Notes under the pieces: generated by a model
Told to the model about the DNA's origin: nothing
Seen by the model: the letters and a program-made list of their open reading frames with translations, nothing else
Database searches by the model: none
Shown here: positions 23,499-60,152 of the stretch, piece after piece
How the letters are laid out: each line of letters begins with the position of its first letter
How positions within the stretch are numbered: the first letter of the stretch is position 1
Translations under genes and position numbers: made by a program
Assembly: GCA_902493795.1 (NCBI GenBank)
Contig: CABUQZ010000001.1
Location: forward strand, 38,697-102,696
Reading direction: 5' to 3'
Length of the DNA stretch: 64,000 bases
Source: an uncultured Clostridium sp.
GTDB lineage: Bacteria > Bacillota_I > Bacilli_A > RF39 > UBA660

Positions 23499-24392
23499 TT
23501 ACTCACTTATATTTAGTATTTCTAAAATTCTATTTAAATCATTTACATTGCTAAAAGAAATACTAATTTTATTAGAATTTATCTTTACTTTCGTTCCTAA
23601 CTTATCGCACATTACATTTTGAATATATTCATAATCATTATTTTTTGTTGTTTTTATTTTATGAGACTTTTCAATATTTCCTGTTTTAGAAACATTTTCA
23701 ATATCTCTAACGTTTAAGTTTTCATCAATAATTTTATTAGCTAAAGCCAAAATATCTTCTTTGTTTTCCATCTTACTAAGAACTCTTGCATGACTCATAG
23801 ATATTTTATTATCGATAATCATATCTTTAACTTCTTCAGGCAAATTTAAAAGTCCTAGCATATTAGTAATATAACTTCTACTTTTTCCTAGTCTGTTTGC
23901 TAGTTCTTCTTGAGTTATTTTCATAGCATCGATCAAACTTCTATATGCCATTGCTTCTTCTATTGAGTTTAAATTTTCTCTTTGCAAGTTTTCAAGCAAA
24001 GCAATTTCCATCATTTGTTGATCTGAAAAATCCCTTACGATAGCAGGTATTTTATCAATTTCTGCCATTTTACATGCTTTAACTCTTCTTTCACCCGCTA
24101 TTATTTCGTATCCCTTAATAGAACTTTTCTTAACTATTATTGGTTGAAATACTCCATGTTCTTTTATTGACTGAGCAAGTTCTTGAAGTTTTTCTTCATC
24201 AAAAACTTTTCTAGGTTGATATGGATTTGGTCTTAACTCATCAATTGGTAATTCTACTATTTCATCAACTGAAGTAGAATCAAGTATTTTTTCTTCAATT
24301 TGGTCAAAATTAATCTGTTCATTATTAAATAATTCTTCTAACCCTTTTCCAAGAGCTCTTCTTTTAAAATTACTATTGTCCATTTCTCTCAA
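23499..24392 (-). CDS. parB: Chromosome partitioning protein ParB/Spo0J
   Basis: LPIDELRPNPYQPRKVFDEEKLQELAQSIKEHGVFQPIIVKK...GYEIIAGERRVKA. Confidence 0.9.
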   Translation of the reverse strand: MREMDNSNFKRRALGKGLEELFNNEQINFDQIEEKILDSTSVDEIVELPIDELRPNPYQPRKVFDEEKLQELAQSIKEHGVFQPIIVKKSSIKGYEIIAGERRVKACKMAEIDKIPAIVRDFSDQQMMEIALLENLQRENLNSIEEAMAYRSLIDAMKITQEELANRLGKSRSYITNMLGLLNLPEEVKDMIIDNKISMSHARVLSKMENKEDILALANKIIDENLNVRDIENVSKTGNIEKSHKIKTTKNNDYEYIQNVMCDKLGTKVKINSNKISISFSNVNDLNRILEILNISE

Positions 24393-25158
24393 TCACTTCC
24401 TTAGCTAGATTTATATAGGCATCTGTTGCTCTACATTTTGGATCATAAGCAAGTATTGGTTTTCCATGTGAAGGACATTCAGCAAGTCTTACCAATCTTG
24501 GTATTATTGTATTATATACTCTTTCTTTAAAATACTTTCTAATTTCTTCAACGACTTCGAATCCTAAATTAGCTCTTGAATCAAGCATTGTAAGTAAAAC
24601 ACCTTCTATTTCCAAACTAGGATTCAATTGTTTTTGAGCCATCATAATTGTATTTAATAATTGCATTATTCCTTCAAGTGCTAAAAATTCACACTGAACC
24701 GGAATAATAACTGAATTAGAAGCTGTTAAAGCATTTATTGTAATAATACTTAAAGTTGGTGGACAATCAACTATTATATAATCATATTTATCTCTTATTG
24801 GATCTATTTTATTTTTTAATTGTGCACCCTTAACAAAATTAGGTTCTTCTTTAGATTTTTCAAAGAATTCCGTCTCTAATCCGCTTAAATTAACTGTAGC
24901 AGCAAGAAGATCTAGTCTATTATACTTCGTATGAATTATTGCTTCATCAATATTGCATTTTCCAATTAATACATCATATATTGTTCTATCTATATCACCC
25001 TTGTTCATACCAATTCCAGTTGTCGAATTACCTTGTGGGTCTAAATCTATAAGTAAAACTTTCTTACCTAAATAAGCTAAAGATGCAGATAAATTAATAC
25101 TAGTAGTAGTCTTTCCAACTCCACCTTTTTGATTAACAAGAGAAATCATTTTTCCCAT
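24373..25158 (-). CDS. parA: Chromosome partitioning ATPase ParA/Soj
   Basis: Deviant Walker A NQKGGVGKTTTSINLSA. Confidence 0.95.
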   Translation of the reverse strand: MGKMISLVNQKGGVGKTTTSINLSASLAYLGKKVLLIDLDPQGNSTTGIGMNKGDIDRTIYDVLIGKCNIDEAIIHTKYNRLDLLAATVNLSGLETEFFEKSKEEPNFVKGAQLKNKIDPIRDKYDYIIVDCPPTLSIITINALTASNSVIIPVQCEFLALEGIMQLLNTIMMAQKQLNPSLEIEGVLLTMLDSRANLGFEVVEEIRKYFKERVYNTIIPRLVRLAECPSHGKPILAYDPKCRATDAYINLAKEVIERNGQ

Positions 25159-25258: not shown

Positions 25259-26617
25259 TTATTTTTGTAAATTAATAGTTATCTTGTAACTAGAGTCACT
25301 ATCTGCTTCTTCAAAGCTAACTTTATATCCTTTACCTTCAAGTGAAGTAATTGCATTTTTTATATCAGCAATTGCAGGAGTTAAATCAGCTTTAGTTGGA
25401 ACAGCAATTCCAACAGATCCAATAGAACTAGCAACATTTACTGGTTCTTTAGCTATATTTGAGTTAAAAAATTGATCAAAATTATTAGTAGTTGGTGGTG
25501 GAGCTAAAGTAGAAGCTGTCGTTGTTTGCAAAGGAGATGTTGTAGTTTGTTCTTTATTTGCTGTTTGATTAAAACCAAACGTTGGAACAAATTTAAATCC
25601 ATCATTTTGTGGCTCAGTTGTATCTTTCATAAGATCTTTTACATCAACTGTTTCTGGTTTTATTCCACCTATATCAACAGAATTTTCTCTTATTTTATTT
25701 ATATCTATTGTTGTAGGATTATTTTGAGTTATAGGAGCACTTGTTTCTTTTACAGGTTCAGTTTCAGGCTCTGTAGATGAAGGTATTCCAAAATTAGCTA
25801 AATTAAATTGAGGTGCTGTTGTAGATTGTTCACTTGGTAACGAACTAACACTACCAATAGCTTGATTTTGAACATTTCCCACTATATCATTAGCTGTTAA
25901 CATATTATTAATTCCTATCTGGTTATTCATAGTAGCACCACCCTCAACTGTTCCACTTGGATTTACATTATCTGTTCCAGGTTTACTATCATTTATTAAC
26001 TTAATTTCTTTATCTAAATCTCTAACAGTCATCTTTTCATCAATGATTCTATTTAACATTTTTATTTGGTCATTTTTATCTTGAAGATTCAATAAGCTTC
26101 TTGCATGACGTTCAGAAATTTTCGTTTTTAACAAAGCATCTTGTACTTCATCTGGAAGAGCAAGCAATCTTAATTTATTAGATACAGAAGACTGTGTTTT
26201 ACCCATCGTTGCAGCAAGTTGCTCTTGAGTCATATTATCCTCAAGTTCTAGTATTTTTTGGTAAGTTCTTGCTTCTTCAATAGGAGTTAAATCCCTTCTT
26301 TGTAAGTTTTCAATTAATGCAACCTTAGAACTTTCTTTATCATCTAAATTTTTTACTATAGCAGGTATTTTAGTAAGTCCTGCCATAGTAGAAGCCTTAT
26401 ATCTACGTTCTCCTGCTATTATCTCATACTTATTATCAACTTTTCTAACAATAATGGGCTGAATAACCCCATGTTCCTTAATTGAAACAGCAAGTTCCTT
26501 TAATGCTTGATCATCAAAAACTTCTCTTGGCTGAAATCTATTAGGAATAATATCATCTAAATATAATGAAACTACTTCACTATTACCATCCATAACTAAC
26601 ACCCTCTTCTTATACAC
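25259..26617 (-). CDS. noc: Nucleoid occlusion protein Noc (ParB paralog) with a long low-complexity C-terminal extension
   Basis: IPNRFQPREVFDD..GVIQPIIVRK..EIIAGERRYKAS..KISERHARSLL matches Noc/ParB. Residues 230-415 are a T/P/Q/N-rich disordered tract, followed by a short C-terminal domain. Confidence 0.75.
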   Translation of the reverse strand: MYKKRVLVMDGNSEVVSLYLDDIIPNRFQPREVFDDQALKELAVSIKEHGVIQPIIVRKVDNKYEIIAGERRYKASTMAGLTKIPAIVKNLDDKESSKVALIENLQRRDLTPIEEARTYQKILELEDNMTQEQLAATMGKTQSSVSNKLRLLALPDEVQDALLKTKISERHARSLLNLQDKNDQIKMLNRIIDEKMTVRDLDKEIKLINDSKPGTDNVNPSGTVEGGATMNNQIGINNMLTANDIVGNVQNQAIGSVSSLPSEQSTTAPQFNLANFGIPSSTEPETEPVKETSAPITQNNPTTIDINKIRENSVDIGGIKPETVDVKDLMKDTTEPQNDGFKFVPTFGFNQTANKEQTTTSPLQTTTASTLAPPPTTNNFDQFFNSNIAKEPVNVASSIGSVGIAVPTKADLTPAIADIKNAITSLEGKGYKVSFEEADSDSSYKITINLQK

Positions 26618-26707: not shown

Positions 26708-28030
26708 TTATTTTAATTCTGGAACTGCATTTGTATCAGACGTTTCTACTCTTAAGAATCCATCATATTCTGCTGTTTCTCCAGGAGACAACGTTCTTCT
26801 TGTAGTATCATATTCAGATGGATAAAACGTATACTCATTATTATTTTTTACATACATTAATGGATTATAAGAATAAGCATTTTTAAACTCAGGAGGTGCT
26901 ACTAAAACAAATGACCAGTCTTTAACATCAGTAGAAGAAGTATTAGTAACATAAACATTATAATCTTCTACATAAGAGCTTCCTCCAGCTGTATAATAAC
27001 TTTTTCTTTCTAATCTAACTTTTAATGTAGGAAGTTCAGCATACATATCATTTGAATCTCCAACTACACCACCATGTGATGTTCCTTCATGAGTACCATC
27101 GATAAGTTCAACATATTGAATATTACCATTTTTCAATATAAACTCTTTGTCTTTAGGGAACTTAATTTGGAATCCACTATTGAAATTGCTATGTGATGCA
27201 TTTAAATAGTTCCATGTAGATTGAGATGGATTTCCTATAACTTTTAATTTAGTTCCATTTAATTCAAGCTTTACTAAGCTTTGATCAAATCCAGGATTAT
27301 CTAGAATTGTTCCTTCTGGTACATCAAAAGTTGCATCAAATGACTTAATTGTCGACAAGTTACCAATATTTGTAACATCAATTGCAGCATTATAACAAAC
27401 TTTATAATCACCTTGAATACTACATCTATCTAAACGAACATCTATTTTTAATTTCAAGTCTTTATAAATCCATGTAATGTTATCTGTTGTTGTTGTAGTA
27501 GTAATATTTTGTTCAATTGTTTCTTTAGATGTACAGTTTGCATTATATACGACAACATGTTCTTTCCCCTCGATTGATTGAATCTTAACATCTGATATAG
27601 ATAATCCAGCTTCAATTAAATCGGCATCCAAATCATCGTATTTTGTTAAATCTTTAATTCCTTGTCCTGTTTCATCAACACTTGTCCAATAATAATCATA
27701 TCCATTACCATTGTAAGTAACAACTATATAGGCACTGACGAAATCACCATATGGTGAAACTGGTTTATCTCCGTTTTCAAGGTTAATACAAGAAGATGGA
27801 ATGTAATAAGTAACTGAGGAATCGTATGCTTCTAACTTACCGCTATTAACTAAAACTCTAGCACCGCCAATAACTTGTTTTGCTGTATCGACATATGCAT
27901 TTTTCCTTGAACTAGAGATATATGAAGTAACACTAGGAATTGCAATTATCATCAATATACCCAATATGATAATAACTGCTAATAATTCAATTAAAGTAAA
28001 CCCTTTCTTATTCTTTTTTTTCATTTTCAT
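26708..28030 (-). CDS. Type IV prepilin-like protein (N-terminal methylation motif) with a large C-terminal extension containing two repeated beta-rich modules
   Basis: Class III signal KKGFTLIELLAVIIILGIL. The C-terminal half has two modules of about 90 aa sharing VTN..G...W / GF motifs, reminiscent of carbohydrate-binding or Ig-like domains. Confidence 0.7.
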   Translation of the reverse strand: MKMKKKNKKGFTLIELLAVIIILGILMIIAIPSVTSYISSSRKNAYVDTAKQVIGGARVLVNSGKLEAYDSSVTYYIPSSCINLENGDKPVSPYGDFVSAYIVVTYNGNGYDYYWTSVDETGQGIKDLTKYDDLDADLIEAGLSISDVKIQSIEGKEHVVVYNANCTSKETIEQNITTTTTTDNITWIYKDLKLKIDVRLDRCSIQGDYKVCYNAAIDVTNIGNLSTIKSFDATFDVPEGTILDNPGFDQSLVKLELNGTKLKVIGNPSQSTWNYLNASHSNFNSGFQIKFPKDKEFILKNGNIQYVELIDGTHEGTSHGGVVGDSNDMYAELPTLKVRLERKSYYTAGGSSYVEDYNVYVTNTSSTDVKDWSFVLVAPPEFKNAYSYNPLMYVKNNNEYTFYPSEYDTTRRTLSPGETAEYDGFLRVETSDTNAVPELK

Positions 28031-30716: not shown

Positions 30717-33700
30717 CTATTCCTTTTCTTTAGCGACAGTCAACATTAGTTTTATTCTATTAACTTGATTAGTATGACTTGCTCCTGGATCATAATCAAT
30801 AGCAACAATATTACTATCTGGATAAAGTTTTCTTACCTTTTTAATTACTGCCTTACCTACTATGTGATTAGGAAGACAAGCAAAAGGTTGAACACAAACA
30901 ATATTATTTATACCTTCTTTAATAAGTTCAACCATCTCTCCAGTTAAGAACCATCCTTCACCAGTTTGATTTCCAACAGACAATATTCCTTCAACATTAT
31001 CAGCAAGTTTATAAATATCAACACTTTTTCTAAATCTAGTACCCTCTAACGCTTTATCTATTGGTTTCTCATATAAATGGATAATTTCAAGCATTTTTTT
31101 ACATAAGTAAGAGTAAAATGACCCTGTCTTAAACAATTTATCTTTAATTAAGCTATTATAAGCACAATACTTAACAAATCCCATAAGTTCAGGAGCACAT
31201 ACTTCTACTCCTTCTTTTTCAAGTTTATCAACTAAATGGTCATTTCCAAACGTATGATACTTAATAAGTATTTCACCAACAATTCCAACTTTAGGTAATT
31301 TTTTATCTTCTATTTCAATCTCACTAAATCTTTTAACAATTTTATTTATATTTTTCTTATATTCTTTAAATTTTCCATGATACAATGACTCTTCACACAT
31401 TTTTTCAAGCTCATCATACACTCTATTAGTTTCACCTTTGTTAACTTCATAAGGTCTAGTAGCATAGCTAAGTTTCATTAATAAATCACCATAACTTACT
31501 GCTTGAAGTAATTTATTGATAAGTGAAATATTTAAATGGAACGCTTGATCTTTTTCAAGTCCAGAAAAATTCAAAGACATAACTGAAACTTGAGGAAGCC
31601 CAGCATCTACTAAAGCTTTTCTAATTAGTCCTATATAGTTAGTAGCACGACATCCACCACCAGTTTGGGTTAAAATGACACTAGTATTATTAACATCATA
31701 TTTTCCACTAAGCAAAGTATGTACAAGTTGGCCTATAACTATAATTGCAGGATAACAAGCATCATTATTAACATATTTTAACCCTGTTTCAATCATTTCT
31801 TCAGTTGTTTCTTTTAAATATACAGGTTTATATCCTTGTGATAACAATGTTGCGCCCAACAAAGGCATATGAAATTGCGAAACATCAGGAAATAACAATA
31901 TATGTTTTTTATCGGCTTCACTAAAAGTATTCTTTTGATAACTATATGTTTCATATTCTTTATCATTTTGTCTTTTATTCATAGATGCAATTAAAGATCG
32001 AATTCTAATCTTTGCAGTACCTAAATTATTTACTTCATCTATTTTAATTGTAGTAAATAACTTATTATTAAATCTTAATATTTCTTCAGCTTGATCTGTT
32101 ACTATCGCATCAAGTCCACATCCAAAAGAATTTAAATTAACAAGTTCTAGGTTATCATAGCGACTTACAACATCACACGTATTAAATATTCTAGCATGGT
32201 ATTCCCATTGATTCATTACTCTCATTTTAGATTTAATTTTACTTAGATGACAAATTGAGTCTTCTGATAACACAGCAAGGCCTAAAGAATTTATCATAGT
32301 ATCAATTCCATGATTTACTTCTTTATCCAAATGATATGGACGCCCAGCAAGAACAATTGCCTTCTCATTATGTTTTAAAATATATTCTAAGAATTCTTCA
32401 CCCTTATCTTGAACGTCTTTTTTAAACTTTTCTTGTTCTTTAAACCCTAAAGCAACAGCTTTTTTAACTTCACTCTTTTTAAACTTGTATTTCTTAAATT
32501 CAGGAATTTCTAATAATCTCAAAACAAGTTTTTCTTGTTCAATAGGTAAAAATGGATTTATATAAGTTATATTGTTCTTCTCGATATCTTCAACATTTAA
32601 TTTAATTGCTTCACTATAAGAAGTTACTATTGGACAGTTATAATGGTTATCTGAGTTATCAAATTCACTTCTTTCATACATCAAACAAGGATAAAATATT
32701 GTCTTTACTCCTTTATTTATTAAATTGATAATATGTCCATGTACTAGTTTTGCAGGATAGCAAACTGATTCACTAGGCATTGATTCAATACCGCTTTCAT
32801 ATATTCTTCTATTAGAATGATCTGAAATAACAACTTTAAATCCCAAATTAGTGAATATTGTAAACCATAAAGGATAATCTTCATACATATTAAGTACTCT
32901 TGGAATACCTATTTCTCCACGTGGAGCATCTTCTATTGGTTTATAATCAAATAATCTATCATACTTCCAAGCATACATATTGGGTAATGTTGAACTGCTT
33001 CCATTGTTACCACTACCTCTTTCACACCTGTTACCAGAAATAAACCTTTTCTTATCAAACATATTTATTGTTAATGCACAATGGTTTTCACATCCCTGGC
33101 ATCTTGTGTTTGTTGTCTTAACCTTTTGATTTAATAGTTCTTCTTTAGAAAGCATAGAACTTACTATATCTTTATCGTCATACTTATTAAAGTTATCAAG
33201 AGCAATTAAAGCTACTCCATAAGCCCCCATAAGTCCAGCTATATCAGGTCTAATTACTTCTTTATGCGTAATATTTTCAAAAGCTTTTAAGACAGCATCA
33301 TTTAAGAATGTTCCACCCTGAACAACTATCTTTTCTCCTAGAGTAGTCATATCTCTTATTTTCATAACTTTTTGAATGGCATTACGAATAACAGAATAAG
33401 AAAGCCCAGCAAAAATATCACCTAAAGGTCTTCCCTCTTTTTGAGTTTGTTTTATTTTACTATTCATAAATACTGTACAACGACTACCTAAATCTATTGG
33501 AGACTTACTCTTAACAGCTAAGTCTACAAAATCATTAACTGTCATACCTAAGCTCTTAGCAAGTGTTTCAATAAAAGAACCACATCCACTAGAACAAGCT
33601 TCATTTAACATTATAGAGTTAACTGCACCATCTTTAATTCTGATGTACTTCATATCTTGTCCACCAATATCTATGATACTTTCAACTCCAGGCAAGAAAT

Positions 33701-34961
33701 AATTAGCAGCTTCATAATGAGCCATTGTCTCTATTTCACTAATATCAAGATTAAACGCTGTTTTAATAAGCATTTCACCATAACCAGTTGAACCACTTTG
33801 CCTAATAATAACTTTAGGAGGAAGTTTACTATATAAATCAAGGATCATTTCCTTAGCAGTATCATAAGGAGTACCTTTATTGCTTTGATAATTTTCATAT
33901 AGTAATTCCCCATCACTACTTATCAAAACAACCTTACAAGTTGTACTTCCAGCATCTATTCCTACAAATGCATCTCCAACATAACTATTTAAATCTCTTT
34001 TCTTAATTGAGGACTTTTTATGACGTTTTAAAAACTTTTCATAATCTTTATTATCTTTAAATAATGCTGGTAAATTATTAGATTCCTCTTCTTTAAAAGA
34101 CTCTAGTTTTTCCTGTATTTTTTTAAATTCTTTAATATCAAATACATTTTTCTTTTCTTTATCAAGTATTGCACCAATACACACAAAAACTTTTGTATCG
34201 ATATTAGGGTTAACCACTTCATCATCATTTAAGTTCAAAGTACTAATAAATCTATCTTTTAAACTAGATAAATAAGTAAGAGGTCCTCCCAAAAATATAA
34301 CATTACCCTTTATTGGCTTACCACAAGCAAGTCCACTTATTGTTTGGTTAACAACTGCTTGCATTATAGAAAGAGCTACATCTTCTTTTTTAGCTCCTTC
34401 ATTTAAAAGAGGTTGAACATCTGCTTTTGCAAACACCCCACAACGAGAAGCTATTGGGTAAATTGTTTTACCATTCTTAGCTAAATCATTAAGTCCTTCT
34501 GTTGTTGTATTCAAAAGTACTGCCATTTGATCCAAAAAAGAACCTGTTCCACCAGCACAAGAACCATTCATTCTTTGTTCTATTGTTTGATCAAAATATA
34601 TAATTTTAGCATCTTCCCCACCAAGCTCAATACACACATCAGTTTGAGGAACAAATTCCATAATAGCATTCTTACATGCAATTACTTCTTGAACAAAGTT
34701 AACATCCAAAAACTTAGCAAGTGCAATAGCACCACTACCAGTCATTGTTAATGTATAATTGTAACCTTTAAACTTTTCCATAATTTCAGAAAACAAAGTA
34801 AAAATTGTTTTCTTAGTATCTGAAAAATGTCTTCTATATTCACAAAATAAAATATTATTTTCTTTATCCATTACAACTGCTTTAACAGTAGTTGAACCAA
34901 CATCTAATCCTATATTTACTACTTTCATATAAATTACCACCGATAAAAATAATAGTAACAC
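30717..34961 (-). CDS. Fusion protein: two BadF/BadG/BcrA/BcrD-type ATPase (CoA-substrate-specific enzyme activase) domains, a DUF2229-like Cys-rich segment and a 2-hydroxyacyl-CoA dehydratase D-component (HgdB)-like domain
   Basis: Two acetate/sugar-kinase-fold blocks (NIGLDVGSTTVKAVV and FVGIDAGSTTCKVVL); Cys cluster RCQGCENHCALT..CERGSG; C-terminal HgdB-like region (~520 aa); 1414 aa in total. Confidence 0.65.
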   Translation of the reverse strand: MLLLFLSVVIYMKVVNIGLDVGSTTVKAVVMDKENNILFCEYRRHFSDTKKTIFTLFSEIMEKFKGYNYTLTMTGSGAIALAKFLDVNFVQEVIACKNAIMEFVPQTDVCIELGGEDAKIIYFDQTIEQRMNGSCAGGTGSFLDQMAVLLNTTTEGLNDLAKNGKTIYPIASRCGVFAKADVQPLLNEGAKKEDVALSIMQAVVNQTISGLACGKPIKGNVIFLGGPLTYLSSLKDRFISTLNLNDDEVVNPNIDTKVFVCIGAILDKEKKNVFDIKEFKKIQEKLESFKEEESNNLPALFKDNKDYEKFLKRHKKSSIKKRDLNSYVGDAFVGIDAGSTTCKVVLISSDGELLYENYQSNKGTPYDTAKEMILDLYSKLPPKVIIRQSGSTGYGEMLIKTAFNLDISEIETMAHYEAANYFLPGVESIIDIGGQDMKYIRIKDGAVNSIMLNEACSSGCGSFIETLAKSLGMTVNDFVDLAVKSKSPIDLGSRCTVFMNSKIKQTQKEGRPLGDIFAGLSYSVIRNAIQKVMKIRDMTTLGEKIVVQGGTFLNDAVLKAFENITHKEVIRPDIAGLMGAYGVALIALDNFNKYDDKDIVSSMLSKEELLNQKVKTTNTRCQGCENHCALTINMFDKKRFISGNRCERGSGNNGSSSTLPNMYAWKYDRLFDYKPIEDAPRGEIGIPRVLNMYEDYPLWFTIFTNLGFKVVISDHSNRRIYESGIESMPSESVCYPAKLVHGHIINLINKGVKTIFYPCLMYERSEFDNSDNHYNCPIVTSYSEAIKLNVEDIEKNNITYINPFLPIEQEKLVLRLLEIPEFKKYKFKKSEVKKAVALGFKEQEKFKKDVQDKGEEFLEYILKHNEKAIVLAGRPYHLDKEVNHGIDTMINSLGLAVLSEDSICHLSKIKSKMRVMNQWEYHARIFNTCDVVSRYDNLELVNLNSFGCGLDAIVTDQAEEILRFNNKLFTTIKIDEVNNLGTAKIRIRSLIASMNKRQNDKEYETYSYQKNTFSEADKKHILLFPDVSQFHMPLLGATLLSQGYKPVYLKETTEEMIETGLKYVNNDACYPAIIVIGQLVHTLLSGKYDVNNTSVILTQTGGGCRATNYIGLIRKALVDAGLPQVSVMSLNFSGLEKDQAFHLNISLINKLLQAVSYGDLLMKLSYATRPYEVNKGETNRVYDELEKMCEESLYHGKFKEYKKNINKIVKRFSEIEIEDKKLPKVGIVGEILIKYHTFGNDHLVDKLEKEGVEVCAPELMGFVKYCAYNSLIKDKLFKTGSFYSYLCKKMLEIIHLYEKPIDKALEGTRFRKSVDIYKLADNVEGILSVGNQTGEGWFLTGEMVELIKEGINNIVCVQPFACLPNHIVGKAVIKKVRKLYPDSNIVAIDYDPGASHTNQVNRIKLMLTVAKEKE

Positions 34962-38453: not shown

Positions 38454-38580
38454 AATTCCACCTCCAAACTAAAATCGACATTATTATAATAAGGAAATAA
38501 CAAAATGTCAATTAAAATAATATCATTAAAATAATTATGATGCAACAAAAAAATACAAATTTCCACATTATTCACAACCC

Positions 38581-38743
38581 TGTGTATAAATATACGTAAA
38601 GTTATTCACATAATTAACAAACATGTTGAAAACTTAATAACATCCTGTGATTTAAAATTTGTGGAAAAAGTGGAAAACTCATATTTTACATATAAATAAA
38701 AGGTTTTACCTATGGATAACTTAGTGTATAACTTATGGATAAC
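38581..38743. promoter_or_regulatory. oriC upstream part (incA/B-like): cluster of degenerate DnaA boxes upstream of dnaA
   Basis: TGTGTATAA (38581), TTATTCACA (38602), TGTGGAAAA (38660), TATGGATAA x2 (38711, 38734). Each is one mismatch from TTATCCACA. Confidence 0.6.
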
Positions 38744-38825: not shown

Positions 38826-40208
38826 ATGAACAACAATTCTATACTTTGGACAAAGATTCTTGAAAAGATCAAAAGTGAAATCAATTCTTTATCTTTTCAA
38901 ACATGGTTTGAAGAAACCACTTTGTACGATTTTAGTAACGGAGTAGCGAAGATAATTGTTCCTTATGCATTACACAAGGACCACTTAGCAAATAACTACA
39001 AAAAGCTTATAACTTCATGTTTTATTGAAGAAATAGGGGAACCAGTTGAACTTGAATTCCTAATCCAAGAGGAAATAGAAGAGCAAGATGAACTCCTAAA
39101 TGAACCAGAAATAAAGTTAGATTTTAATGACAATATATATAAGGATGTCAAAGATACTAATTTTGAATCACATTTGGATAAAAAATACACATTCGAAAAC
39201 TTTGTAGTAGGAAATACTAACAAATTTGCCCATGCAGCAGCACTTGCAGTAGCAGAAAAACCTGGAACTATGTATAATCCTCTGTTTATATATGGAAATA
39301 GTGGGTTAGGGAAGACCCATTTGATGCATGCAATAGGAAATTACATAGAAAAGAACTCAAATAAAAAAGTTTTATATATAACAAGTGAGACTTTTGTAAA
39401 TGATTTCATTGAAATTACAAGGAAAAAAGAAGAAAAAAGTAATTTTGAAAACATTGATTTCTTTAAGAAAAAATATAGAGATATAGATGTTCTAATTGTT
39501 GATGATATTCAGTTTTTAGCTAAAAAGAATGAATCTCAAAAAGAATTTTTCCATACATTTAACAACTTATATGGTGATGATAAACAAATAATCATATCTT
39601 CAGATAGATCGCCAAATGACTTGAAAATATTTGAGGATAGGTTAAGAACAAGATTCAATTGGGGATTACCAGTTAATATTTATCCACCAGATTTTGACTT
39701 AAAAGTTGCTATATTAAAGAAAAGAATAGCAGCAGAAGCCATGAATACTGATATACCTGATAATGTTATAGAATATATGGCATCAAATATAGGAACAGAC
39801 ATAAGAAGTTTGGAAGCTAGTCTGAATAGATTGTTTGCATATTCAACAATGATGGGAGCAGATATAACACTAGATTTAGCAATAGAAGCCCTAAAAGACT
39901 ATATAAATGCTGGATTTAGTGAAAAAAATGACGTAGGAAAAATCCAAAAATTAGTAGCAGATTACTTTAAAGTATCAATTGATGACCTAAAATCTAAGAA
40001 AAGAAACGCTGATTTAGCATTTCCAAGACAAATTGCTATGTATCTCTGTAGAAAACATACTGATGAATCTTTTCCTAAGATAGGGCTAGAGTTTGGTGGA
40101 AAAGACCATACAACTGTTATGCACTCTTGTTACAAGATAGAAAAAGAGATAAAAAATAACAAAAATTTAGCTGAAGAAATTGATAAACTTGAAAAAGAAT
40201 TACATTAA
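38826..40208 (+). CDS. dnaA: Chromosomal replication initiator DnaA
   Basis: GNSGLGKTHLMHAIGN ... C-terminal DNA-binding domain. Confidence 0.97.
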   Translation: MNNNSILWTKILEKIKSEINSLSFQTWFEETTLYDFSNGVAKIIVPYALHKDHLANNYKKLITSCFIEEIGEPVELEFLIQEEIEEQDELLNEPEIKLDFNDNIYKDVKDTNFESHLDKKYTFENFVVGNTNKFAHAAALAVAEKPGTMYNPLFIYGNSGLGKTHLMHAIGNYIEKNSNKKVLYITSETFVNDFIEITRKKEEKSNFENIDFFKKKYRDIDVLIVDDIQFLAKKNESQKEFFHTFNNLYGDDKQIIISSDRSPNDLKIFEDRLRTRFNWGLPVNIYPPDFDLKVAILKKRIAAEAMNTDIPDNVIEYMASNIGTDIRSLEASLNRLFAYSTMMGADITLDLAIEALKDYINAGFSEKNDVGKIQKLVADYFKVSIDDLKSKKRNADLAFPRQIAMYLCRKHTDESFPKIGLEFGGKDHTTVMHSCYKIEKEIKNNKNLAEEIDKLEKELH

Positions 40209-40337
40209 TTAACAAGTTATCAACAAGAATGTTAATAAAAAAATTGCTAAAATGTCGTAAAATCAAGAATTTTGAAAGTTATACACAATATTCACTTCAA
40301 TAATATAAATAATATATAAAAAGAAAGAGGTAATAAT
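40209..40337. promoter_or_regulatory. dnaA-dnaN intergenic region (incC-like): two degenerate DnaA boxes plus an AT-rich unwinding-element candidate
   Basis: TTATCAACA, TTATACACA, then aataatataaataatatataaaaag. Confidence 0.5.
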
Positions 40338-41545: not shown

Positions 41546-42004
41546 ATGAACAATTATGAAATTAATGAAGATACGTATGCAATTATTTCACAGAATAGTG
41601 GAAAAACAAGAATAGTAGAAAGAAAATATGAGTTAGATGTGGAAAAAAATGCATACGAAATTATGGATGAAAGCTGTAAATACTATGGAAGTAGCTATAA
41701 GGGTAGAATAGAAGCTGCTAAAGATATTTTAAATTGTAGCTATAAACTGCCAATACTAGTAGAGGAGAGTAGTGCATTAATATTTTTTCCAATTAAGTCT
41801 TCTTTATTAGAAGATTGCTGTTGGATTAATCTTAATAGCATTGATAATATTGAAAAACAGAATAATAAATCTATTGTGACATTTAAAAATGGTAAAAAAG
41901 TGACCTTTGATATTTCTAAACTTTCACTAGAAAATCAAATTTATAGATCATCTAAATTAGAGTCAATAATTTATAAAAGAAAAAGTGCAAAAAAAAGGGA
42001 TTAA
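41546..42004 (+). CDS. comK: ComK-family competence transcription factor homolog
   Basis: SCKYYGSSYKGR, KLPILVEESSALIFFPIKS, CCWINL, VTFKNGKKVTFDISKLSLENQIYRSSKL align with conserved blocks of B. subtilis ComK. Confidence 0.7.
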   Translation: MNNYEINEDTYAIISQNSGKTRIVERKYELDVEKNAYEIMDESCKYYGSSYKGRIEAAKDILNCSYKLPILVEESSALIFFPIKSSLLEDCCWINLNSIDNIEKQNNKSIVTFKNGKKVTFDISKLSLENQIYRSSKLESIIYKRKSAKKRD

Positions 42005-47763: not shown

Positions 47764-47804
47764 TAATTTAGTTGTAATTTATTAATTAATATAGTAAAAT
47801 TTAA

Positions 47805-47892
47805 TTGATGCAATAAGTACGGCAGAACTAGGTCAGGACAGGAATGTAGCAGCCTTAATGCTTATAAAAATTTGTACTTATGTGCATCATTT
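47805..47892 (+). ncRNA. ffs: Signal recognition particle RNA (small 4.5S-type)
   Basis: Domain IV motif AGGUCAGG-ACA-GGAA-UGU-AGCAGCC closes a GGAA tetraloop. The 5' segment GATGCAATAAGTAC pairs with the 3' segment GTACTTATGTGCATC. A tadA-scr-dnaX neighbourhood is known from Bacillus. Confidence 0.7.
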
Positions 47893-47913
47893 TTTTTGGA
47901 GTTGTGGAAGTAT

Positions 47914-48336: not shown

Positions 48337-48346
48337 TATAAAAAAT

Positions 48347-48372
48347 TGTGGATAAAAGTTTCACGTGAAACG
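48347..48372 (+). promoter_or_regulatory. Composite element 1: DnaA box TGTGGATAA (48347-48355) abutting parS-like AGTTTCACGTGAAACG (14/16)
   Basis: Direct sequence match; 1-nt gap. Confidence 0.7.
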
Positions 48373-48465
48373 AAGTAAAAAAAATCTACGTAATAATTCC
48401 AATAATAGATTATTTATTGGAATTTTTTTTTGAAAATATTTCCTTATTACATTTTTTATTTAAAT

Positions 48466-48850
48466 ATATTATTTCTTGGGAAATATTCTATAAATTATTT
48501 CCCAAAGACCATAGATAGTAAAAATATATTTCCCGAGAAATATTTATATATAATTATTATCTTAATATATTAGTTGTTAAAAAAAATATTTCCTGGGAAA
48601 TATTCGATAAATTATTTCCCAAAAACTATAAATAGTAAAAAATATATTTCCCGGGAAATAATTATATGTAATTATTATCCAATATAATAGTTGTTGAAAA
48701 AAAATTTTTCCCAGGAAATATTCTATAAATTATTTCCCAAAAACTATAAATAGTAAAAAATATATTTCCCGGGAAATAATTATATGTAATTATTATCCAA
48801 TACAATAGTTGTTGAAAAAAAATATTTCCTAGGAATTATATAAATATTTT
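48466..48850. repeat. About 3.2 tandem copies of a 119-bp repeat, each carrying two Noc-binding-site-like palindromes
   Basis: Unit starts at about 48466, 48586, 48704 and 48823. Perfect ATTTCCCGGGAAAT at 48646-48659 and 48764-48777. Variants with 1-3 mismatches: ATTTCTTGGGAAAT (48471), ATTTCCCGAGAAAT (48528), ATTTCCTGGGAAAT (48588), TTTTCCCAGGAAAT (48706), ATTTCCTAGGAATT (48825). Confidence 0.85.
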
Positions 48851-49135
48851 ATATAAAGTATTAATTAAAGAATAGTGATTGCAATTTTATTTTAAGAATA
48901 ATCTTTTTATATTATATAAGATTATTTTTATTTGTGGAAAAAGAAATATATAGTTTTAATAATAAAGAAAATAAACGAAGAAAAAATATTTAATAATAAA
49001 CATATTTTATAAAAAATAAATTTTGTATATGCATCTTGTTGATAAAAGTTATAAGTGGCAAAAGAGAAGAAAATATAAATGAAAAAATGGTAAAACGAAG
49101 AAAAAAAGATTAATTTATTAAATACAAACAGTTTA

Positions 49136-49161
49136 TGTGGATAAATGTTTCACGTGAAACA
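49136..49161 (+). promoter_or_regulatory. Composite element 2: perfect DnaA box TGTGGATAA plus perfect parS TGTTTCACGTGAAACA (49146-49161)
   Basis: 16/16 match to the Bacillus-type parS consensus TGTTNCACGTGAAACA. Confidence 0.85.
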
Positions 49162-49250
49162 TAATAATAATCTGGAAAAAGGAAGTAATAAACAAAATAG
49201 GTGAAAAACAGAACGGAGAATAAGATATTGATGAATAAATTAAGAAATCA

Positions 49251-49275
49251 AAAGGATAAAGTTTCATGTGAAACT
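49251..49275 (+). promoter_or_regulatory. Composite element 3 (degenerate): AAAGGATAA plus AGTTTCATGTGAAACT (13/16)
   Basis: Same architecture as the other units, with mismatches. Confidence 0.45.
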
Positions 49276-49375
49276 ATTGATAGTGGAAAAAGATATTATA
49301 TAGAATAAAAAAGAAAGTAAAACGGAGAAAAAAAGTTTTATATATAACATTTAAGAAAAATAATATGAACATTTT

Positions 49376-49400
49376 TGTGAATAATGTTTCACGTGAAACA
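49376..49400 (+). promoter_or_regulatory. Composite element 4: DnaA box TGTGAATAA plus perfect parS TGTTTCACGTGAAACA (49385-49400)
   Basis: 16/16 parS; the box has one mismatch. Confidence 0.85.
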
Positions 49401-49488
49401 TAAAACTTAGTGGAAAATATAAAAAATATTAATAATTTGATATGATTATAATTGTGACTAAATGCTTTATGTATCAAAATTTCTAGAT

Positions 49489-49513
49489 TGTGGAAAAAGT
49501 TTCACGTGAAACA
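49489..49513 (+). promoter_or_regulatory. Composite element 5: DnaA box TGTGGAAAA plus parS AGTTTCACGTGAAACA (15/16)
   Basis: Direct sequence match. Confidence 0.75.
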
Positions 49514-49585
49514 TTATAAATAAAATGTAGAATATAACTTATAAATAATATTTTAAATAATAATGTAATAAAAACGGTTGTGCTT

Positions 49586-49686
49586 TGTGGATAAAAATTG
49601 TTGATTAAAAAAATAGAAATATATGTAAAGTAAAATAAAAATAGAATATTAAAAAATAATTTTTATATATTTTTTATTGTGGATAA
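49586..49686 (+). promoter_or_regulatory. Two further perfect DnaA boxes (TGTGGATAA at 49586-49594 and 49678-49686) inside an almost pure A/T tract (49600-49900)
   Basis: 9/9 consensus boxes in the same orientation as the composite units; the flanking DNA is over 90% AT. Confidence 0.7.
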
Positions 49687-49930
49687 AATTTAAAAAAACA
49701 AAAAAATATGTGTTTTAACACTTTTTATATCAAGAAAATAACAAAAATGTAATAATAATATTTATATGTATGATTTTGCTTATAAAATATTTTTATAGAT
49801 AAAAAATAATGTTTTTATATAATGTCAATATGTATGCTTAAAAATAAATGTAAAGTATGTAAATATACGTAAAAATAATGATAACTTGTTGATAAAAAAT
49901 ATATTCAAAATGTCTGTAAAATAAAATATT

Positions 49931-49945
49931 TATGGTATAATATAT
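49931..49945 (+). promoter_or_regulatory. Extended -10 promoter element (TGgTATAAT) for dnaX
   Basis: tatggtataat lies 25 nt upstream of the dnaX start. Confidence 0.45.
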
Positions 49946-49967
49946 CTTGAGATTTATAGGGGGACTT

Positions 49968-59609: not shown

Positions 59610-59631
59610 AGAACAAACTTATCTATTATGG

Positions 59632-60119
59632 ATGAGTTTGTTTTTACAAGGAGTAAAAAAAGAAAGTTTGAAAAAAATAAGTTTTGAACAATTCAAAATA
59701 GACATTAAAGATGATAAAAAATTATATGATGCATACAATTTACCAAAAAGAAGTACATTGTATGCAGCAGGTTATGATTTTGAAGCTATTGAACCTTTTA
59801 CAATAAAATCTGGGGAAATAAAAAAATCCCAACTGGAATAAAAGCTACAATGGAAAATGATGAGGTATTATTATTAATTGTTAGGAGTAGTCAAGGATTT
59901 ACTTATAACCTTAGAATGTGTAATCAAGTTGGGGTAATAGATAAAGATTATTTCAACAACAAAGATAACGAAGGACATATTTGGATAAAACTCAAAAATG
60001 AAGGCGATAAAGACTATGTCGTTTCAAAACATGATAGAATTATTCAAGGACTATTTATAAAATATTTATTAACAGATGACGATATTAAACCAATAAAAGA
60101 AAGAAAAACAAATCTTTAA
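59632..60119 (+). pseudogene. dut: dUTP diphosphatase (dut) split by a -1 frameshift inside an A7 run (either recoding or a homopolymer indel)
   Basis: ORF1 (59632-59841) has the dUTPase N-terminus ..PKRSTLYAAGYDFEAI... ORF2 (59850-60119) has the C-terminus ..LLLIVRSSQGFTYNLRMCNQVGVIDKDY..DRIIQGLF. The minus-one frame is open from 59793 and reads ..KKIPTGIKATMEND, restoring the conserved PTGI segment. Confidence 0.75.
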
Positions 60120-60152
60120 GAATATTCTTTCTTTTAATTTTTAGGAGGAAAC

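Follow-up and report, generated by a model that had tools for sequence, protein, structure and literature searches.

Predicted DnaA boxes adjoin parS sites in an origin-proximal intergenic array of an uncultured low-GC Firmicute

When a binding site for the replication initiator DnaA lies directly beside parS, the loading site of the partition protein ParB, and does so repeatedly within one intergenic region, is the juxtaposition favoured by selection or is it a by-product of repeat amplification near a replication origin? The question was raised by a 64,000-nucleotide stretch of contig CABUQZ010000001.1 (the window), the origin region of an uncultured Firmicute with a guanine-plus-cytosine (GC) content of 27%, in which a first-pass annotation had noted DnaA-box/parS composites in direct repeat. 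They lie in the spacer between tadA and dnaX (48337-49967), which is 1631 bp long, non-coding and, at 18%, has the lowest GC content of the window. We analyzed this spacer together with related loci from other genomes. The account that we prefer, and hold to be reasonably probable, is that the tadA-dnaX spacer is a dedicated origin-proximal centromere, made up of a ParB-loading array and a DnaA-box cluster between which steric cross-talk is likely. With much the same assurance we suggest that the spacer grew by tandem duplication of a ~115-bp module and carries predicted sites for ParB (five), DnaA (nine) and a Noc-type ParB paralogue (seven).

We scanned the window with the 16-bp palindromic parS consensus TGTTNCACGTGAAACA and identified five parS-like palindromes, at 48357-48372 (14 of 16 positions matched), 49146-49161 (16/16), 49260-49275 (13/16), 49385-49400 (16/16) and 49498-49513 (15/16), exactly where and with the scores that the first-pass annotation had reported. 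Its statement that the window holds no other copy, not even in parB, was borne out by motif scan at up to two mismatches across the 64 kb. The next 10 kb to the right contained no parS, no Noc site and no perfect DnaA box; the five array sites are the only parS in this ~74 kb (the window plus 10 kb rightward). With up to three mismatches, 15 matches were observed (both strands counted) as compared to 1.5 +/- 1.3 in shuffled sequences.

DnaA boxes were defined as 9-mers within one mismatch of TTATCCACA, and by this definition a box stands 0-1 nt away from four of the five parS sites. All the units lie on the minus strand. Unit 1 (48347-48372) consists of a perfect box at 48347-48355 (TTATCCACA on the minus strand), a gap of 1 nt and the 14/16 parS, while unit 2 (49136-49161) has a perfect box at 49136-49144 and, again after 1 nt, a perfect parS at 49146-49161. 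Read on the forward strand, the 9-mer before parS in both units is TGTGGATAA, with no mismatches. In unit 4 (49376-49400) the 9-mer TGTGAATAA, with one mismatch, abuts the perfect parS at 49385-49400 at gap 0, and in unit 5 (49489-49513) TGTGGAAAA, also with one mismatch, abuts the 15/16 parS at 49498-49513. The claim of five composites failed only for unit 3 (49251-49275). Its 9-mer, AAAGGATAA, has three mismatches to the box, lacks the CACA end and cannot credibly be called a DnaA box; the parS-like AGTTTCATGTGAAACT that follows at gap 0 is the most degenerate of the five (13/16). Unit 3 has decayed as a whole, in both halves jointly. A relic unit at 49037-49062 (minus strand) retains a TGTTGATAA box followed by a destroyed parS (AGTTATAAGTGGCAAA) and is 82% identical to the head of unit 1.

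Altogether the spacer contains nine boxes at up to one mismatch, all on one strand, of which four are fused to parS (0, 0, 1 and 1 mismatches) and five are not. The window as a whole contains five perfect boxes, and with four of them the spacer reaches the highest density; box matches in the window number 43, where shuffled sequences gave 22.7 +/- 4.3. When nine boxes were placed at random, the probability that at least four lay at gap 0-1 from any of the five parS was P = 1.7e-7. The units were identical across four independent assemblies of the same species, in which only the neighbouring tandem array varied in length, and the composite units are therefore not an assembly artefact.

Units 2-3 and units 4-5 are the products of an old duplication of ~230 bp, and the repeats of about 100 bp described by the first-pass annotation are indeed present as the heads of this duplication, but they start at 49090 and 49317, one base from the positions it gave. 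Such a history invites a rival explanation, namely that parS, DnaA boxes and Noc sites accumulate in a large non-coding region near oriC, that one chance box-parS module was copied by tandem amplification and gene conversion, and that DnaA and ParB act independently. The array is visibly built of duplicated modules of ~115 bp and its length differs between strains, as that explanation would have it. What has stayed alike between units 2-3 and 4-5 speaks the other way. Only motif islands (the GTAAAACGRAGAAAAAAAG motif, the box with its parS, and the GTGGAAAA motif) are still recognizable in a sequence whose flanks have diverged to background, and the loss in unit 3 struck both halves together.

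To see how far the composite extends beyond this species, we scanned one genome per species for TGTGGATAA-N0-12-GTTTCACGTGAAAC, which returned at least 119 loci from many phyla. Among the matches listed, 27 loci came from low-GC 'Bacilli', 'Tenericutes' or 'Clostridium sp.' metagenome-assembled genomes, and in all 27 the composite lay in the gyrA-tadA-dnaX neighbourhood. These arrays have up to 11 parS and all have Noc sites in the same 8 kb. Most of their parS carry a box, whose ATAA end always points toward parS; the gap between the box and the parS 16-mer is 0-5 nt across species and roughly constant inside a species. The array itself shifts between the gyrA-tadA and tadA-dnaX spacers among relatives. 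In two species (L119, reverse strand, 5968, and L046, 7166) a perfect gap-0 composite is found inside the 3' coding end of gyrA, where it encodes ...VDNVSRET... in the acidic tail (...VDNVSRETEEEKENE, followed by the stop). The GyrA proteins of these two loci are 90% identical to that of the window, whose tail is without the composite.

Adjacency was then counted. A box at up to one mismatch lay within 8 nt of 83 of 177 parS sites (47%) and of 11 of 692 control anchors shifted by 70-90 nt (1.6%), in a set consisting of the 27 Bacilli loci, the window, four close relatives (L010-L013) and ten DnaX-anchored metagenome loci; each of the 27 loci had been chosen for at least one perfect composite, so that the perfect boxes are partly ascertained, and tandem copies inside one array are not independent. 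For an ascertainment-free sample we used 80 metagenome loci retrieved through DnaX, 22 of which contained a total of 73 parS. In eleven of the 73 the parS core was 3-5 nt from a box of the same orientation, with one further match at gaps 6-60 and three in the opposite orientation over gaps 0-60.

Several observations, besides the two biases just named, weigh against a coupling function. All 11 positive parS of the DnaX sample came from two of the 22 loci, and the parS arrays of L134, L139, L153 and L159 had no box. The four close relatives, found via DnaX homologues (DnaX identity 84-64%), all have arrays of parS and Noc sites immediately after tadA, often as interleaved tandem modules, and a DnaA-box-like xGTGGAAAA lies close to every parS, in a variable arrangement. 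L010 (TGTGAAAAA fused to parS) and L012 (a 9-mer fused to parS at gap 0-1) have boxes at two mismatches only; in L013 a two-mismatch box precedes parS by 8-9 nt; in L011 none is adjacent, the box-like motif being 15 nt downstream of parS. In ~8 species, that of the window among them, the box stands on the oriC side of parS, as against the far side in ~21; any role that depends on one constant direction with respect to oriC is hard to reconcile with this. The fusion is dispensable within the clade. Among the matches listed from beyond the Bacilli clade, the histogram of gaps in distinct composites was roughly flat. The first-pass annotation had called the fusion fixed, which cannot be upheld for an adjacency with gaps of 0-5 nt, on either side, that gives way to two-mismatch boxes or to boxes 8-15 nt distant in the closest relatives and is absent from many arrays.

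The absence of boxes from many related arrays, the lack of a conserved gap or side and the two fusion-bearing loci among the 22 of the unbiased sample are all points that co-location without coupling can claim. It fares worse with the species in which the fusion occurs between unalignable flanks, with different gaps and on both sides, and yet in a single relative orientation, and with the composite inside the coding sequence of gyrA. At a gap of 0-1 bp, moreover, steric independence of the two proteins would be physically unlikely. We therefore regard co-location without coupling as rather unlikely, and the amplification of one chance unit, by which the first-pass annotation would have let its own reading fall, was not what we found: the fusion recurs in many related species, among unrelated flanks, and once inside a coding sequence (gyrA). 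These comparisons demonstrate for the predicted sites that box-parS adjacency is non-random, recurs in related species and keeps one relative orientation, with the ATAA end toward parS, and that in part of the clade it is selected or at least strongly favoured.

This conclusion was confined to the clade. A fusion rule for all bacteria is not claimed, given the roughly flat gap histogram elsewhere, and only lineage-conserved cases are claimed there. Among the matches listed, identical composites were shared within Lachnospiraceae/Butyricicoccaceae (TGTGGATAAyCAGTGTTTCAC), Deferribacteres (gap 7), Treponema (gap 0) and Alphaproteobacteria (gaps 1 and 3). For the most part they lie close to parAB/rsmG or gyrA.

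Is the 9-mer beside parS a DnaA site at all? The DnaA box consensus is TT[A/T]TNCACA, in which positions 3 and 5 are variable and position 6 is not. Across the clade, mismatches in the parS-adjacent boxes fell at position 3 (20 cases), position 5 (11) and position 6 (11) and never at positions 7-8. The box variants found beside parS also occur in the canonical oriC next to dnaA, and on both counts the identification of the 9-mer as a DnaA box by the first-pass annotation stood up. Other copies have no parS next to them. Stand-alone boxes, all on the minus strand, were found at 48933-48941 (TGTGGAAAA, one mismatch), at 49586-49594 (perfect, with a weak tandem copy, TGTTGATTA, 3 nt on and then an AT-rich tract), at 49678-49686 (perfect) and at 49887-49895 (TGTTGATAA, just upstream of the dnaX promoter region). 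L010 also has a stand-alone perfect pair upstream of dnaX. The first-pass annotation had counted the motif TGTG(G/A)ATAA five times; the number was correct, but the copies at 49586 and 49678 stand alone beyond the end it had set for the array, and neither unit 3 nor unit 5 matches the motif. A further DnaA-box-like 9-mer, AGTGGAAAA, with two mismatches, lies at 49282-49290 (minus strand), 6 nt downstream of the unit 3 parS, and a similar copy follows unit 4 at 49409-49417. Motifs of the AGTGGAAAA type also flank parS in L010, L011 and L013 and occur in the oriC region at 38660-38678.

The alternative is that the 9-mer extends the ParB recognition sequence or belongs to another factor. It draws on the neighbour motif of the closest relatives, xGTGGAAAA, whose two mismatches include box position 9, and on the additional conserved motif AAACGGAGAAAAA, which points to other binding factors. 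Neither the stand-alone copies at 49586 and 49678 nor those in the oriC cluster upstream of dnaA are expected of it, however; a gap that varies over 0-5 nt is incompatible with a single extended ParB site, and the mismatch spectrum fits a DnaA box. We consider this alternative highly improbable. The pattern of substitutions and the stand-alone copies support the view that the 9-mers beside parS act like genuine DnaA boxes, as predicted sites.

The module motifs themselves lie at 49090-49108 (GTAAAACGAAGAAAAAAAG, plus strand) and, as a second copy, at 49317-49335 (GTAAAACGGAGAAAAAAAG, plus strand), and both are conserved. The pattern AAACG[GA]AG[AT]AAAA (the AAACGGAGAAAAA motif) was present in the arrays of all the close relatives L010-L013, in L013 directly before each Noc site, and occurs in the window further at 48971-48987 and 49211-49221. 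We know of no DNA-binding protein whose site it matches. Given its conservation, factors beyond ParB, DnaA and Noc probably bind these modules.

The number of boxes in so AT-rich a region raises another question: could the spacer be a replication origin in its own right, be it the true oriC or a second part of oriC, with boxes that serve unwinding and parS sites embedded in it? The window's highest density of perfect boxes and its lowest GC content (18%) would agree with this, as would the perfect box, weak tandem copy and AT-rich tract at 49586-49700, although such features are uninformative in a spacer of 18% GC. The sign of the GC skew, however, changes at 38-39 kb, beside dnaA, and gene orientation switches there too. 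Canonical box clusters flank dnaA: one, of imperfect boxes on both strands, lies upstream of dnaA at the skew switch (38560-38742), and the dnaA-dnaN spacer (40209-40337) contains two DnaA boxes (40217 and 40279) and an AT-rich tract. Together these constitute the usual bipartite oriC of Firmicutes. The composite array (48.3-49.5 kb) is ~10 kb clockwise of it, origin-proximal and not within oriC, and its boxes, 100-800 bp apart and in a single orientation, are unlike the compact box arrays of oriC. Furthermore, relatives carry the array in either the gyrA-tadA or the tadA-dnaX spacer. On the evidence of GC skew and of the canonical box clusters beside dnaA, the spacer is ruled out as oriC, and we consider the origin reading as a whole, a second part included, improbable. 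The first-pass annotation had treated the locus as origin architecture; the spacer is not the origin itself, which is at dnaA.

Besides the five stand-alone boxes, the first-pass annotation had overlooked seven Noc-binding sites (NBS). They form an array between units 1 and 2 (48462-48839, no strand assigned), in which the palindrome TATTTCCCGGGAAATA, which we take to be the 16-bp NBS consensus of Bacillus and Staphylococcus, recurs at 48470, 48527, 48587, 48645, 48705, 48763 and 48823 with 0-3 mismatches. Two of the copies are perfect, and the spacing of 58-60 bp reflects a 118-bp unit repeated three times in tandem. Elsewhere in the window a single NBS match occurs (42683, three mismatches). 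The distance from the parS of unit 1 to that of unit 2 is 789 bp in the window, 675 bp in L001 and 889 bp in L002, and Logan contigs break within the NBS array. Noc and parS sites alternate within one tandem module of ~105 bp in L013, 119 bp in L139 and 175 bp in L012, an alternation seen across L011-L013, L139 and L152.

Proteins to read these sites are encoded in the window. The parB (spo0J) gene (23499-24392, minus strand) encodes a protein with ParB_N and HTH_ParB domains (Pfam), the specificity residue R173 and a GKSR motif, and its best solved relative is Spo0J of B. subtilis. It is accompanied by parA (soj), which encodes an ATPase (24373-25158, minus strand; Pfam). This cognate pair lies ~24 kb from the array, and the Bacillus-type identity of parS proposed by the first-pass annotation was upheld. 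The ParB deviates in having a serine at the equivalent of G201 (ISMSHARVL as compared to LSMGHGRTL in Spo0J), a position at which ParB orthologues have an invariant glycine (Jalal et al., PMC7383237). The 452-amino-acid ParB paralogue (25259-26617, minus strand) occupies the noc position, and its best solved relatives are Noc structures (E = 1e-63). It has Q173, K179 and R201 in the helix-turn-helix; its motifs GKTQSSVSNKLRLLALP and SERHAR place Q, K, A and R at the four specificity positions. Q173 and R201 with one lysine at 179 or 184 suffice for NBS specificity (Jalal et al. 2020, PMC7383237). Only 3-11 residues precede the conserved domain of the paralogue, with no obvious N-terminal amphipathic helix, and its alignment to solved Noc chains begins at their residue 27. 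The DNA-binding domain is followed by a long low-complexity linker of ~190 amino acids, rich in S, T, P, N and Q, and by a small C-terminal domain. The elements of the spacer genuinely match the consensus sites of ParB, DnaA and Noc, and binding of the three proteins is predicted at them.

How might such a locus work? ParB clamps, loaded with cytidine triphosphate (CTP) at parS, would slide off the site, recruit SMC and stimulate ParA/Soj. The high-affinity boxes would make the array an origin-proximal DnaA-box cluster and hold DnaA beside the partition complex. With 0-1 bp between box and parS, the two proteins would have to touch or exclude each other. A DNA-bound protein blocks the spreading of ParB-CTP in one direction (PMC7053999), and because clamp sliding is blocked one-sidedly in this way, DnaA bound 0-1 bp from a loading site would be bound to interfere with ParB. 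Two consequences seem the likeliest. Bound DnaA may be a one-sided roadblock at the loading site that confines ParB clamps to the array or between successive units, although it could instead be a competitor for an overlapping footprint. DnaA would also be kept within reach of ParB-stimulated Soj, giving tighter coupling of initiation control and segregation. The 'hard-wired coupling in cis' of which the first-pass annotation had spoken would be an inference of this kind. Because the gap and the side vary between species, proximity appears to be what is selected, not one rigid ternary geometry, and we consider steric cross-talk that depends on proximity more likely than a stereospecific DnaA-ParB complex.

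Findings in other bacteria fit DnaA held beside ParB and ParA. In B. subtilis, removal of the origin-proximal DnaA-box clusters makes initiation early and acts in synergy with removal of spo0J (Okumura et al. 2012, PMC3245932); in Caulobacter DnaA binds DnaA boxes in the parS region (Mera 2014, summarised in PMC6399470). The side-by-side NBS and parS arrays further suggest that ParB and Noc clamps may be loaded next to each other at one locus. A wider proposal, which we offer as possible and no more than tentative, is that the spacer exemplifies an origin-organising array of a large uncultured clade of low-GC Bacilli, possibly convergent elsewhere, in which ParB, Noc and DnaA sites are interleaved and the fusion would be a cis coupling device, with DnaA gating the loading or spreading of ParB, or ParB gating the availability of DnaA. 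If this were true, initiation licensing would be linked to segregation and to membrane and division control without diffusible intermediates.

The rest of the spacer and of the window was also inspected. Unit 1 is directly followed (48397-48431, plus strand) by an AT-rich hairpin (TTCCAATAA...TTATTGGAA) with a T-run after it, probably the tadA terminator; a G+C-based scan, which missed this hairpin, found no terminators in the spacer. Sigma-70-like sites in the spacer were not enriched (26 as compared to 20.7 +/- 5.1 in shuffles), and in view of this lack of excess an array of promoters was ruled out. Rfam searches at gathering and permissive thresholds detected no credible RNA family in the spacer, where a small-RNA match stayed below threshold (E = 0.1). 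A known RNA was likewise ruled out, the single Rfam match being the signal recognition particle (SRP) RNA, outside the spacer. This small SRP RNA lies between gyrA and tadA (47804-47894, plus strand). The mechanical call of the tadA open reading frame (TTG at 47872) overlaps it, while the TadA called in relatives is 140 amino acids long and starts downstream of the RNA.

To the right of the skew switch, dnaA (38826-40208) is followed by dnaN, comK, recF, gyrB, gyrA, the SRP RNA, tadA, the spacer, dnaX, ybaB and recR. The comK gene (41546-42004, plus strand), between dnaN and recF, has the same placement in relatives L001-L004, L010 and L013. To the left are rnpA, yidC, jag, mnmE, mnmG, rsmG, a pilin-like gene, the 452-amino-acid ParB paralogue, parA and parB. 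The pilin-like protein (N_methyl; 26708-28030) is encoded between rsmG and noc. A 1414-amino-acid fusion of the BcrAD/BadFG activase type (DUF2229; 30717-34961, minus strand) is inserted between mnmG and mnmE in an otherwise conserved flanking gene order. Downstream of a 207-amino-acid open reading frame, a dUTPase gene at ~59630-60130 is intact in one assembly (162 amino acids, L008) and split elsewhere among L001-L009, L213 and L214, with products of 58 and 100 or 69 and 89 amino acids, which suggests strain-level frameshifts or a pseudogene.

Current understanding of how bacteria couple replication start to segregation rests only on indirect links, chiefly the action of Soj/ParA on DnaA, and on a single direct example, DnaA at the Caulobacter centromere. 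In Firmicutes, a recurrent fusion of an initiator site and a ParB loading site at 0-5 bp would be a direct link in cis. The DnaA and Spo0J of B. subtilis are expected to recognise the same consensus sequences as those of the array, and because these are shared the array should be unusually easy to test by transplant or synthesis.

Set against known systems, the arrangement combines kinds that have been seen before: a parS array, a DnaA-box cluster and a DnaA-bound centromere. To our knowledge no box-parS fusion has been described for the DnaA-box clusters of B. subtilis, and literature searches returned none. The parS clusters of the B. subtilis type share with this locus the TGTTNCACGTGAAACA palindrome, sites within 10 kb of oriC, a Spo0J-like ParB with a Soj-like ParA and the rsmG-noc-soj-spo0J arrangement; here, in contrast, five sites form one intergenic tandem array instead of being scattered, none lies in parB and four are fused to DnaA boxes. 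The oriC-proximal DnaA-box clusters of B. subtilis (PMC3245932) and datA of E. coli are likewise intergenic clusters of high-affinity boxes close to but outside oriC, whereas the boxes described here, unlike those of the B. subtilis clusters, extend over 1.5 kb on one strand and abut ParB sites. The Noc system of Bacillus and Staphylococcus has the identical 16-bp consensus TATTTCCCGGGAAATA, and the paralogue, in noc position, has Q173, K179 and R201 (PMC7383237). It differs in that seven sites are packed into 380 bp beside parS, or interleaved with it in relatives, where Bacillus and Staphylococcus have origin-proximally scattered sites, and in the very short N-terminus and long low-complexity C-terminal linker of the protein; we found no description of a Noc array beside parS, or interleaved with it, in the literature. 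In rctA/parS2 of Vibrio cholerae chromosome 2 (PMC6399470) a centromere site binds the replicon initiator and partition and initiation communicate in cis, but that initiator is RctB and not DnaA, the system is plasmid-derived and there is no repeated composite. Caulobacter crescentus differs as an alphaproteobacterium with a single parS locus, for which repeated composites at 0-1 bp are not described (PMC6399470). Its parS centromere nevertheless has DnaA boxes in the parS region and is shared by the initiator and ParB, and DnaA influences segregation there (PMC6399470). DnaA boxes within the parS region are also what we found here, as four predicted boxes 0-1 bp from parS. The first-pass annotation had been unable to place the fusion in any known origin architecture, for which Caulobacter (PMC6399470) and the B. 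subtilis clusters (PMC3245932) are in fact precedents.

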